DNA of 63,972 nucleotides, filler included, from Reclinomonas americana ATCC 50394 (Eukaryota), in assembly GCA_048213135.1 (NCBI GenBank). It is 5 parts of 3 records of this genome, joined end to end, with 100 filler letters (N's around TTAATTAATTAA, not from the genome) between each part and the next. Parts side by side here need not be neighbours in the genome. Positions count along the whole stretch, not along the records: positions 23,439 to 44,739 come from PS015305.1; 4 more parts are not named here. The stretch is one strand, 5' to 3'. Both the position numbers and the translations under genes were made by a program. The notes beneath the pieces are model-generated. The model was given only the letters and a program-made list of their open reading frames with translations, made no database searches and was not told the DNA's origin. This document shows, piece after piece, positions 34,593-38,687 of the stretch. Position 1 is the first letter of the stretch; every line of letters begins with the position of its first letter.

Positions 34593-37500
34593 ATGGAGAC
34601 GTCGAAAGCTCAGCCGCCGAAGCATGACGAGAAGAAGAAGAAGGACAAGAAGCAGGAGGAGGAGCTGGTGCGTGCGTGTTTTTTGTGTGTGCACATGGCG
34701 CCATTCCTCGCACACTTCGTCTTGTCTCTTGTGTCGACCGTCGTGCATGCGTGTTTGCTCTTTCTCCTCCTCCTCTCCCGTGTGTGCTCGTGTGCACGTG
34801 TCACGCATGCGCTCGACAAGCAGTGTGTGTGTGTGTTTTGAGAGAGAAGAGTGTTCAAATTCGTTTGCGCGCGCGCTCTCGCTCATTGCTTGTGTGCAGA
34901 GCGAGGAGGAGCTGCGTATCAAGGATGAGATGCAGTTGCTGGTGGATCGCGCCAATGACGAGTCGGCCGAGTTGCGACAGCGTGCGATTCAGTCGATGAG
35001 CGAACAACTTCGTGGCGCCGTTGCGTGTTGTCTCTCACTCACTCACTAGCACACTCTCTCGCGTTCTCACTCGTTGATGGGCGCAGGAGGCGAGCTTGGC
35101 GTCTGTCCCGCTGCAGCTCAAGTACCTGCGAAAGCACTTTGTGCCGCTCAAGGAGCTGCACGCGCGCATTCCCGATTCGCCAGAGAGAGTTGCGTGCGCT
35201 CTGTGAGGCGCGCGTGTGTGTGTTGTTGTTGCTGCTCACCTTTTTTTGCGCAGCGTCTGCTTGCTGATGTGATCTCGCACCTGGCCACCACCTTCCATGT
35301 TGCGTCGCTGTTGTCTGGTGTCCCACACGAGTGCTTTTGCTCTCGTCTCACACTTGTTTTCTGTTGGCGCAGGGCGGCGACCGCGACTGCCTGACGTACA
35401 AGCTGCAGGGCAACCGCAGTGACATTGAGTCGTGGGGTCCCGAGTACATTCGGTGCGTTTTGTTGAGAGAGAGAGAGACAAAGTGATTGCGGTCTCATCG
35501 CCTGCGCAGTCACTTGGCTGGCGAGATTGGTCGCGAGTATGAGGCGCGCGCCACGGCGACGGCGTCGGATGCGGCCAGCGGCTCGGCCGCCGAGCTGGCA
35601 CTGCCTGCCGATCTGTTGAGCCTGGTACACCAGATTGTGGCGTTTGAGGTGCGACACCGCTCCGAGCCCGACGCTGTGGACCTGCTGCTGGAGGTCGAGA
35701 AGCTGCAGCTCATCATCCCGCTGTGCGACGCCGACAACTACCACCGCGTGTGCTCGTACTTGATTGCGTGCTCGCAGTACGTACCCGAGCCCGACGATCA
35801 GGAGCTGCTGAAGGTGCGTGGTATCCGGAGGGCCCTGCGTTTTTTTGAATATTTTCGTGACGGTTCCTTTTGCGTTATCGCAGGTGGCACTGGAGATCTA
35901 CATGAATGTGCGCCGCTACCCCGAGGCTCTGCGTGTGGCTCTGCGCCTCAACGATCCGCGCCTCATCAAGCAAGTGTTTGCCGCTTGCGACAATGAGTTG
36001 TGTCTGCGTGTTTGTTTGTTTTCGTGGTCCGTCGTGCGGTGCTTACCGTTGGCCGCCACAGCTTGGTGAAGAAGCAGCTCGGTTTCATTCTCGCGCGCCA
36101 GCGCTTCCTCATTGATGTGGAGAACGACGACCTGAACGAGATCATCTCCAACACCAAGCTCTCCGAGTACTTCCGCAAGGTGGCTGCCGACCTGGAGGTC
36201 GTGGACGCCAAGAAGCCCGAGGATGTGTTCAAGACGCACCTGGTGGAGACAAGTTGCGTCTTATTCTCGCCTCTTCAAGTGTGTACTCGATCCGTCGGCT
36301 TTACTCACACCCGCGATTTGTGCAGGACCTGGTGCTCAGGCCAACATGGACTCGGCCAAGCAGAATTTGGCTGCGACCATTGTGAACGGCTTCCTGAATG
36401 CCGGTTTCGGATCCGACTTGTTGATGACCAACAAGGTGGGACGGATGAGCATAGGTGGTTGCTGAATTAGCATCCACTCACTACGCCTCCTTGTCCTCCT
36501 CCCAGGGCCAGGATGCCGAGAACTGGTTGTACAGGAACAAGGATCAGGGTCTAACGGCCGCCGCTGCCTCTGTTGGCATGATCCACATGTGGGATGTGTA
36601 CACGGGCTTTGCCGAGATCGACGCGTACCACGAGTCGCCCGACAAGTGCATTCAGGGTGGCGCTCTCTTGGGCATGGGTGCGTGTTTCTCTGACGGGGAG
36701 TGCATTTTTTGCGAGTACTCACCATATGATGTTGTCGCAGGCCTCATTCTGAATGGCGTGCGATCCACCTTCGATCCTGCTCTGCAGCTCATCACTGACG
36801 CCATGAGCAACTCGTCGCGCGAGGTGCGGTGGTACTGATTGATTGTCTGTCGTGTGACGCACATTGTTGTTTGACCCCCGCAACTGCACAGGTCCGTGTC
36901 GGTGGCATTCTGGGTCTTGGTTTGGCGTACGCGGGCTCCTTCCGCGAGGATGTGGCAGAGAAGCTGTCGAGCCTGCTGCTGAACGCGGACGAGAGCATTG
37001 AGATTTCGGCCTTGTCGGCCTTGTCTCTCGGCCTGGTACGCGTACCTCGTCATCACACAACATCGCACAAACCCCCTGTCACTCATTTTGCGCGTTCATT
37101 TTGCAGATCTTTGTCGGCTCGTGCCACGAGGAAGTGTCCAACACCATCCTGCACGCACTGCTGGAGCGCGATGAGACCGAGTTGGCCACGAACACCCTGT
37201 CGCGGTTCTACTCGCTGGCACTCGGCTTCATCTTCTTGGGCAAGCAGGGCGAGTCAGATACCATTCTGGAGGCCACAAGGGTGTGTGTGTTCTGTGGAAG
37301 AGGCGCGTTCTTCTTGCGGCTCACTCGTCTCCTTGCAGGCATTGCCGGCCAAGATCTCCAAGTACTGCGAGTTCACGGTCGAGTCGTGTGCCTACGCTGG
37401 CACCGGCAACGTGTTGAAGGTGCAGAAGCTGTTGGAGGAGTGCGGCACGCACTCGGAGGAGGAGGACCAGAAGCTGCACTTGGTGCGTGGGTTGTGCGGG

Positions 37501-38687
37501 CAAAACAAGTAAGTACCGCAGCATGTGCTCACACGCACTGTGTGCAGGGTGTGGCCACTCTCGGTCTGGCGTTGGTATCGATGGGCGAGGATATGGGTAG
37601 CGAGATGATGCTGCGCTCGTTCGACCACTTGCTGCAGTTGAGTTCACTGTTTCACGCGGGGTGTGCGCGGTTGCATGCGTCTCACTTTTTGTCTGGCGTG
37701 TCGAACAGATACGGTGACTTGGAAGTTCGCCGCGCCATTCCGCTGGCTCTCGGCATGCTGTCCGTGTCGCACCCGCGTGTCAACGTCATGGACACGCTGT
37801 CAAAATTGTCGCACGACAACGACCACGAGGTGTCGCAAGGAGCTATTCTCGGACTTGGCCTGATTGGCGCTGGTGTGTGTTGTGCGAAACTTTCGCGCGT
37901 CGCTCTTCTTCCTCTGTTCTCATGCGCACACGCGCGCACATGCAGGAACGAACAACTCGCGTGTGGCCGGTCTGCTGCGCAACCTGTCGGCGTACTACAG
38001 CCGCGAGGCCAACCACTTGTTCCTCGTGCGCGTCTCCCAGGTTCGTCGTCTGTTTGCTCACGAACAGGGGGTGGTCGTGTCGGCCACTCACCACATTGTT
38101 GGATGCGCGCACAGGGTCTGATTCATATGGGCAAGGGCACGATGACTCTGCAGCCGTTCCACTCGGATCGCCTGCTCATGTCGCCGGTGGCCGTGGCCGG
38201 TATCCTCACGCTGATGCACTCGGCCATGGACTTCAAGAACAGTTGCGTCTCACCGTCAATATGTGTGATGAGTGGCGGCGTTGCTCACTCCCCGCTTCTT
38301 GCAGTCCTCCTGAGCAAGCACCCGTACCTGTTCTACCACCTGGCGTGTGCCATGTACCCGCGTTTCCTTGTCACTGTCGACGAGGACCTGGAGCCGAAGG
38401 CCGTGAATCTGCGAGTCGGTCAGGCGGTGGACACGGTGGCGCAAGCCGGCAGGCCGAGACAAATTACCGGCTTCCAGCAGCACATGGCCCCCGTTCTGTT
38501 GCAACATGGCGAGCGTGCCGAGCTTGGCGACGACGATTGTTGCGCATGCATTCACTCACCCTTTTTGTTTTGGTGTGTAGTCGTTGTTTTAATTGACGCG
38601 TGATGTTGTTGCGGTGCAGACGTTTCGCTGTCGTCGGTACTCGAAGGCGTGGTCATTTTGCGAAAGAAGGAGGAAATGGCCGAGTGA
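34593..38687 (+). CDS. PSMD2: 26S proteasome regulatory subunit Rpn1 (20 exons, 19 introns by manual splicing)
   Basis: SVPLQLKYLRKH, SWGPEYIRHLAGEI, MDSAKQNLA, CAYAGTGNVLKVQ, DTLSKLSHD, GTNNSRVAGLLRNL and VRVGQAVDTVAQAGRPRQITGFQ-type motifs are all present. Stop TGA at 38685-38687. Confidence 0.97.

Follow-up and report, generated by a model that had tools for sequence, protein, structure and literature searches.

Two classes of 5' splice site, the second displaced by one base, in the Rpn1 gene of Reclinomonas americana

We have analyzed a stretch of 63,972 nucleotides (nt), filler included, from the genome of Reclinomonas americana ATCC 50394 (assembly GCA_048213135.1), hereafter called the window, in which the coding region of Rpn1/PSMD2 occupies positions 34593..38687 of the plus strand (within the part taken from PS015305.1) and presents two forms of 5' splice site, or donor. 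The coding region is made of 20 exons and 19 introns and runs from the ATG at 34593 to the TGA at 38685-38687, giving after splicing a coding sequence of 2634 nt without internal stops, equivalent to 877 amino acids (aa). This open frame bears out the count of 19 GT-AG introns proposed in the first-pass annotation: all 19 have GT-AG ends, 18 of them being 57-81 nt long and one 232 nt, and their density is about 7 per kb of coding sequence. Single exons match the Pfam families PF17781 (RPN1_RPN2_N; 93 and 69.9 bits), PF01851 (PC_rep; 26.1 bits) and PF18051 (RPN1_C; 56.5 bits), each above the curated cut-offs. With the N-terminal domain, the PC repeats and the C-terminal domain all present, the predicted product is, to judge from its sequence, the Rpn1 regulatory subunit of the 26S proteasome. 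The introns have the characters of the major (U2) type, namely GT-AG ends, a branch-point-like motif and an open frame matching that of homologs. The U12 type, which is characterized by a /RTATCCTT donor with a matching branch site, was considered and rejected, since none of the 19 donors resembles that of U12 introns.

The donors of Rpn1 fall into two classes. Eleven of the 19, hereafter class 1, begin with GTGCGT (five introns), GTGTGT (two), GTGCGG, GTGGGA, GTACGC or GTTCGT (one each). The remaining eight, hereafter class 2, begin with GTTGCGT (five introns, at 35020, 35189, 35299, 36253 and 38242), GTTGCGC (38539), GTTGTGT (35997) or GTTGAGT (37637), and are preceded, in gene order, by C, A, T, A, A, A, A and T. 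The last exonic base, or position -1, is G in 11/11 class 1 donors versus 0/8 class 2 donors (Fisher exact test, p = 1.3e-5), which is the partition originally noticed by manual splicing. The listing of the donors also upholds the proposal that the two classes align to a single motif, G-[G/T]-T-G-C-G-T, cleaved either after or before its first G. We thus consider the presence of a second, shifted donor class in Rpn1 as confirmed.

The position of the junctions was checked by comparison with homologous proteins. Two exon queries collected 152 relatives of Rpn1, of which the 43 having a length of 820-1050 aa were kept and aligned with our model using MAFFT, the best of these full-length homologs being 48% identical. 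We then scored 109 in-frame alternatives with GT/GC-AG ends lying within ±24 nt against a hidden Markov model (HMM) built from the 43 homologs alone, with which the spliced model obtains 1180.5 bits. Among class 1 introns (all on the plus strand, as the whole gene), intron 1 (34668..34899; g|GTGCGTG; 232 nt) has a best alternative that scores 3.3 bits less, while the Pfam profile is continuous across intron 5 (35453..35509; g|GTGCGTT; 57 nt; profile positions 106|107|108) and intron 6 (35814..35883; g|GTGCGTG; 70 nt; positions 197|198). Frame, homolog alignment and HMM concur for intron 10 (36678..36740; g|GTGCGTG; 63 nt), intron 12 (37036..37106; g|GTACGCG; 71 nt), intron 16 (37873..37945; g|GTGTGTG; 73 nt) and intron 17 (38041..38114; g|GTTCGTC; 74 nt), the latter having T at +3; frame and HMM support intron 11 (36824..36891; g|GTGCGGT; 68 nt) and intron 13 (37281..37338; g|GTGTGTG; 58 nt). 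Intron 14 (37483..37547; g|GTGCGTG; 65 nt) has zero in-frame alternatives within ±24 nt, and intron 9 (36436..36505; g|GTGGGAC; 70 nt), which carries a weak class 1 motif, has an alternative acceptor at +6 that gains 0.5 bits.

The cut before GTT, that is at the GT of class 2 donors, is fixed by homology at five of the eight sites, and at two of them to the residue. All alternatives are worse by 3.6 to 10.5 bits for intron 7 (35997..36061; a|GTTGTGT; 65 nt; best alternative -3.6 bits), intron 8 (36253..36325; a|GTTGCGT; 73 nt; -6.9 bits), intron 15 (37637..37708; a|GTTGAGT; 72 nt; -10.5 bits), intron 18 (38242..38304; a|GTTGCGT; 63 nt; -4.3 bits) and intron 19 (38539..38619; t|GTTGCGC; 81 nt; -5.2 bits). 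Moreover, exon 7 ends at position 234 of RPN1_RPN2_N, the codon split by intron 7 corresponds to position 235 and exon 8 resumes from 236; in the same way, exon 19 extends up to position 34 of RPN1_C, the codon split by intron 19 corresponds to position 35 and exon 20 resumes from 36. Because the Pfam coordinates are unbroken at these introns, both junctions are exact to the residue. The alignment with homologs is free of insertions or deletions at introns 2, 7, 15, 18 and 19, and agrees with most homologs at introns 3 and 8, while the HLLQ|YGD junction of intron 15 is conserved in homologs. Homology leaves undecided intron 2 (35020..35086; c|GTTGCGT; 67 nt), intron 3 (35189..35253; a|GTTGCGT; 65 nt) and intron 4 (35299..35372; t|GTTGCGT; 74 nt), at which last site most homologs are 1 aa longer than our model. 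We have also considered boundaries slid to non-GT ends that would leave the messenger RNA identical; they are possible at 3/8 sites, where the next exon starts with G, and hence were rejected as a general reading.

The recurrence of class 2 donors in other genes of the window was studied with a dynamic-programming gene finder of our own, which combines codon log-odds, ATG and stop codons, introns of 45-400 nt bounded by GT...AG, and a rough score for branch point and acceptor. In a donor-blind run, only GT was scored at the donor. This approach regained 13-14 of the 19 known introns of Rpn1 (5-6 missed); given such a low recovery the calls contain noise, though no preference for any donor motif is built into them. 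With a codon table trained without the Rpn1 locus, it called 114 introns in 11 confident genes outside Rpn1, the commonest donor hexamer being GTTGCG (12 introns) followed by GTGCGT (11). Along the sense strand, 15/56 GTTG[C/T/A]G sites were called as donors versus 99/1911 other GT sites (p = 2.5e-7), and G at -1 was present in 0/15 class 2 donors versus 22/35 GTNNG[T/C] donors (p = 2e-5). Both the motif and its association with the -1 base thus recur outside Rpn1 beyond chance within the 64-kb window.

In a trained run of the same program, the donor was scored by a first-order model of positions +3 to +8, again trained without Rpn1, leaving the exon side as an independent read-out. It returned 21 class 2 donors in 9 genes; the length of 14 of these introns is not divisible by 3, and a further one contains an in-frame stop. 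We further defined a high-confidence subset of introns that appear in both runs, are needed for the frame, carry a branch-point-like motif and YAG, and measure 50-200 nt. These are 39 in total: 8 of class 2 (preceded by A in six cases, C in one, T in one and G in none), 18 of class 1, of which 14 follow a G, and 13 others. Pooling the 19 introns of Rpn1 with the 8 class 2 and 18 class 1 introns of the subset (the 13 others being excluded), G at -1 is found in 25/29 class 1 versus 0/16 class 2 donors (p = 7e-9). The additional claim that class 2 is routine, accounting for about 40% of Rpn1 introns, is supported insofar as the class is frequent, with 8/19 introns in Rpn1 and 8/39 high-confidence predicted introns elsewhere.

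The eight predicted class 2 introns of the subset all lie on the minus strand. Three belong to one gene for a coiled-coil protein, at 7041..7129 (t|GTTGCGT; called in both runs, of a length that is not a multiple of 3, with a branch-point-like motif and YAG), 7236..7321 (c|GTTGCGT) and 7771..7847 (a|GTTGCGT), and two to a gene for a WD40 protein, at 14502..14563 (a|GTTGCGT) and 15245..15351 (a|GTTGCGC). The others are predicted at 30013..30107 (a|GTTGCGT; reading through it meets a stop), at 39943..40004 in a gene for a coiled-coil protein (a|GTTGTGT) and at 49709..49770 (a|GTTGCGC). A search among WD40 exons for a second gene allowing a residue-level check of the junctions found nothing. In the WD40 region (12692-15438, minus strand) the gene finder probably fuses two genes, the WD40 protein at approximately 15438-13866 and a second protein starting from approximately 13495, and the predicted exons of 10-28 nt between them are likely artefacts.

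An asymmetry between strands can be seen independently of any intron call, using only the strand of the genes. In the 11 genes outside Rpn1, the heptamer GTTGCGT preceded by a base other than G (H-GTTGCGT) occurs 21 times in sense and twice in antisense orientation, G-GTGCGT 13 times versus none, and G-GTTGCGT none versus twice; with Rpn1 included, the counts become 26/3 for H-GTTGCGT and 18/1 for G-GTGCGT, the class 2 heptamer being the more numerous in sense orientation. Plain counting of motifs followed downstream by a branch-point-like sequence discriminated poorly (34/84 GTTGCG versus 38/139 GTGCGT sites).

To describe the shape of the class 2 motif we pooled 29 donors, the 8 validated in Rpn1 and the 21 predicted in the trained run. 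T at +7, which lies outside the definition of the class, is present in 25/29 and C at +5 in 24/29, indicating that the entire GCGT block is displaced by one base. The -1 base is A in 15, T in 11, C in 3 and G in none. These data qualify the earlier formulation that class 2 serves exons whose last base is not G. What can be regarded as secure is an enrichment for G at -1 in class 1 that class 2 does not share; an active avoidance of G by class 2 is at most suggested, since G is already rare before GTT in predicted coding sequence (23/205 cases), so that 0/8 is unremarkable (p = 0.39) and 0/29 merely suggestive (p = 0.03). The rule that every ordinary donor follows G, valid for all eleven in Rpn1, is likewise softer elsewhere (14/18 in the high-confidence set), and outside Rpn1 some ordinary donors probably follow a base other than G (4/18).

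A minor predicted donor, GTGGCG, appears six times, with T as the next base in five and a mixed -1 position: 4882-5004, 20587-20678 and 4029-4075 on the minus strand, and 17830-17894, 9283-9381 and 17328-17600 on the plus strand. The heptamer GTGGCGT is found 8 times in sense versus 2 in antisense orientation and, by its sequence, resembles a possible bulge variant of the displaced block, namely GT plus an extra G before GCGT.

At the other end of the introns the two classes are alike. The motif YTNAY is present 8-45 nt from the 3' end in 18/19 Rpn1 introns, and CTCAC or CTCAT 12-25 nt from the 3' end in 15/19, irrespective of class. Such common CTCAY motifs, together with equal intron lengths, suggest that one spliceosome probably serves both classes. 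Examples of the branch-point-like motif are found at 35063-35067, 35235-35239 and 37681-37685, with C in place of the usual purine before A; CTCAC occurs 90 times in sense and 60 in antisense orientation in the wider gene set. The possibility that class 2 introns form a family of introners or mobile introns was rejected, because the interiors of the 29 introns align with each other no better than shuffled sequences (median score 5 in both cases, top score 16 versus 12).

We next consider how the two donors may be recognized by U1 small nuclear RNA (snRNA), using the human 5' end AUACUUACCUG (PMC4856993). In the canonical register the class 1 consensus can make 10 pairs, with a predicted energy of -9.7 kcal/mol. 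The class 2 consensus forms 9 pairs when the register is moved by +1 versus 3 in the canonical one, and its minimum-energy duplex is the shifted one, which includes A-1:U10, G+1:C9, U+3:A7, G+4.U6, G+6:C4 and U+7:A3. On balance, we favour the interpretation that the major spliceosome of this organism removes short introns with two forms of donor and that U1 reads class 2 one base out of register. According to this interpretation, class 1 would be G|GUGCGU-like and class 2 H|GUUGCGU, with the U1-pairing block GCGU lying one base further from the cut. U1 would bind class 2 in a shifted position that brings G+1 opposite C9, the usual partner of exonic G-1, while the cut would stay at GU, being set by later steps that involve U6, U5 and Prp8. 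The intronic G might in this way replace the missing exonic G and render spliceable those exons that end in A, C or T. We infer both the binding of U1 in the shifted register and the subsequent hand-over to U6, for which it may be relevant that C+5 and G+6 of class 2 mismatch the ACAGA box in the normal U6 register.

Several points weigh against this interpretation. Class 2 is predicted to pair weakly with standard U1, the energy being -3.2 kcal/mol when the -1 base is A and +0.5 kcal/mol when it is U, as compared with -9.7 for class 1, and the T at -1 of 11/29 class 2 donors is unable to pair with U10; moreover, the human U1 sequence is a stand-in for that of the host. Homology does not separate introns 2, 3 and 4 from alternatives whose donor is a GC lying 3 nt further downstream (GTT|GC), combined at intron 2 with an acceptor also moved by +3; compared with the model, these alternatives score -0.6, 0.0 and +1.1 bits. 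One position of the Pfam profile is absent between exons 3 and 5, in accord with the doubt over intron 3 or 4. Every junction rests on homology or coding logic, and the gene models outside Rpn1 are error-prone, with 63/125 introns common to both runs. Finally, the frequencies come from one 64-kb window and our own gene models, so that any genome-wide figure is extrapolated.

The same downstream pairs would form if class 2 were an ordinary donor with one extra nucleotide, G+1 and U+2 pairing normally, a U at +2 or +3 being bulged and GCGU pairing thereafter. This bulged register has precedents, since 68 and 51 human 5' splice sites with single-nucleotide bulges at +2/+3 and at +3, respectively, are given in the available text of PMC4856993, and it would explain the GTGGCGT donor described above (6 predicted introns) better than a shift does. 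A bulge would nevertheless keep the pair between -1 and C9, so that G at -1 should be favoured, whereas in the predicted set it is found in 0/29 class 2 versus 41/70 class 1 donors. The lack of G enrichment at -1 fits with G+1 taking C9, which favours the shift over a bulged U, as does the minimum energy of the duplex with standard U1. We therefore regard the bulged register as unlikely.

Still less probable, in our opinion, is an altered machinery, as inferred in the first-pass annotation, in which a changed or additional snRNA reads GUUGCGU directly, be it a second U1, the ACAGAGA box of U6 or loop 1 of U5, so that two recognition devices would coexist. U1 5' ends that have co-evolved with donors are described in the portions of a preprint dealing with Entamoeba (ACAAAC for GUUUGU) and Mastigamoeba (ACGUAC for GUGCGC) (bioRxiv 10.1101/2022.06.08.495308). 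The one hint of an adapted U1 is the conserved C, at +4 in class 1 and +5 in class 2, for which a G at position 5 of U1 would be the partner. A U1 of the ACGUAC type would lower the predicted duplex energy from -9.7 to -15.6 kcal/mol for class 1 and from -3.2 to -9.1 for class 2; the weak pairing of class 2 with standard U1 also leaves scope for help from elsewhere. However, the ACGUAC variant would still read class 2 in the shifted register, and the same preprint, in the text available, reports C at +4 together with standard U1 in Thecamonas and Mamiellales. The branch-point and acceptor signals, moreover, are common to both classes. A search of the window against Rfam gave no match at the gathering thresholds and, at E <= 1, no snRNA among its 13 weak matches, of which 10 concern microRNA families, 2 a bacterial small RNA family and 1 a cis-regulatory element. 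An altered spliceosome is not required, given that standard U1 already favours the shifted register. A G at position 5 of the host U1 is our prediction, and it would concern the conserved C rather than the shift.

The least tenable explanation is an annotation artefact, whereby class 2 sites would be cut elsewhere, either at GC-AG introns with donors 3 nt downstream (GTT|GCGT, adding one codon) or at other nearby sites; the scores at introns 2, 3 and 4 leave room for it, and at intron 4 it would restore the length of most homologs, but the GC donor is impossible at intron 15 (GTTGAGT has no GC), creates a stop at intron 8, lowers the score of introns 7, 18 and 19 by 3.6 to 5.2 bits, contradicts the continuity of Pfam coordinates with a cut before GTT at introns 7 and 19, and would demand T at both -1 and -2 of all such sites. 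Since it fails at introns 15 and 8 and loses at introns 7, 18 and 19, the GC alternative is not general, and we consider the artefact very improbable.

The window as a whole is nuclear DNA of an intron-rich and apparently compact protist genome. Four identical linkers, each consisting of 44 N, TTAATTAATTAA (with stops in all six frames) and 44 N, are present at 23339-23438, 44740-44839, 58302-58401 and 62766-62865; the window is thus a stitched pseudo-scaffold whose adjacent pieces are not necessarily neighbours in the genome. N letters form 20 runs totalling 4835 positions, which explains the low-GC bins of the composition profile. Predicted genes are tightly spaced, as two convergent ones end 22 nt apart (12670/12692) and two divergent ones start 97 nt apart (8642/8739), suggesting a compact genome despite its intron density. 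A C-terminal zinc finger of DNA polymerase epsilon is found at 20322-20585 on the minus strand (PF22912, zf-DPOE; E = 4e-14), and other domains are SPX (16662-16826, plus strand), WD40 repeats (14948-15085, minus strand) and CAP-Gly (56409-56585, plus strand). In a Pfam scan of 70 exons from genes other than Rpn1, 64 had no clear family, with matches below the cut-offs or none. Searches of the large protein collections with Rpn1 found no close relative: identity to the best match is 48% over the whole alignment, reaching 66% for the exon that is most conserved, and those neighbours that carry a name are scattered over unrelated groups (Anaeramoeba, Phytophthora, Durusdinium and Cyanidium). The lineage seems to be poorly sampled. 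Relatives from metagenomes were considered for a comparison of orthologous introns, using one scan in which 10 loci came up, none exceeding 71% identity within a single exon; they have few large exons, and hence come from other lineages and were discarded.

It is a serious possibility, which we advance tentatively, that this organism splices between a fifth and two fifths of all its introns via a donor whose block of complementarity to U1 is one base off register. If that were true, the bond to be cut would routinely be chosen independently of where U1 binds, and U6 and U5 would have to take over a site offset by one base, either by tolerating the offset or by having adapted to it; a U1 having G at position 5, as in the ACGUAC type, would read both classes. 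No earlier genome would then be known to employ the shifted register as a major, selected mode and not as a rare exception. To our knowledge, the shifted register in humans is documented by few sites and reporter experiments only. A genome in which shifted donors are frequent and have a tight consensus would therefore be a natural test bed for an open mechanistic question, namely how the spliceosome attains single-base precision despite loose pairing with U1: what fixes the cut could be the first GU within the footprint of U1, or else U6, U5 or Prp8, and one could also learn whether U6 shifts and whether U1 has co-evolved. In practical terms, gene finders relying on a single donor matrix would mis-splice such genes, and the annotation of this lineage needs a two-class donor model.

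The motif of human sites read in the shifted register is GUUAAGU. Class 2 differs from these sites in having its own tight consensus, GUUGCGU, and from human exceptions in general by its abundance, since it accounts for 8/19 introns in Rpn1 and, in the other genes, for about one in five of those predicted. In a full-text literature search we found no report of a major donor class of the GTTGCGT type; supplements were outside its scope, and a description under the name of the organism could have been missed. The likeness to human cases is otherwise close. For some human sites, U1 is described as binding one nucleotide further downstream (PMC11162779, PMC4856993; available text), with the validated non-canonical registers together representing 1.5% of 201,541 human sites in the part of PMC4856993 that gives these counts. 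As portrayed in those passages, shifted-register sites have GU followed by an extra pyrimidine, a U1-pairing block that lies one base further on, C9 as the partner of G+1, and cleavage at GU, just as proposed here for class 2; the oligonucleotide used for testing the human register, ACA/GUCAAGUAUA, has A at -1, that is a base other than G, again as in class 2. The bulged and asymmetric-loop registers described in the same source (PMC4856993) resemble class 2 in placing one extra nucleotide between GU and the paired block, but they keep the -1:C9 pair that favours G, at variance with the complete lack of G at this position among our 29 donors. A partial precedent for the following step may be provided by the tandem donor of STAT3, for which the text available proposes U6 pairing off by one nucleotide (PMC11162779), an arrangement that class 2 would need if G+6 and U+7 were to meet the ACAGA box; unlike class 2, the STAT3 case is one alternative donor of a human gene.

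Class 2 can also be compared with systems in which donors vary across whole genomes or lineages. Two main groups of 5' splice sites, AG//GU and //GURAG, linked by a 'seesaw' between -1G and +5G, have been defined by Parker et al. (bioRxiv 10.1101/2022.04.05.487178), as far as the available portion of their text goes. The two classes of R. americana behave similarly in that a missing G at the exon end is balanced by the intronic signal and vice versa, the stronger intronic consensus being that of donors which lack this G; unlike the seesaw classes, which have constant spacing and G at +5, the intronic block of class 2 lies at +4 to +7 with G at +6. Atypical donors shared by entire lineages have been collected by Roy and Bowser (bioRxiv 10.1101/2022.06.08.495308). 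Among those given in the accessible text, C at +4, in GC-rich donors like those described here, is found in Mastigamoeba (GUGCGC), in Thecamonas and in Mamiellales (GYGCGY), while U at +3, as in class 2, is the rule in the GUUUGU of Entamoeba. Each of those lineages has, however, a single consensus in the normal register, and the same text, in which the string GUUG occurs 0 times, mentions no second class displaced by one base. The class 2 donors of R. americana apparently belong to a known kind, that of the shifted register, which here would be routine instead of rare.

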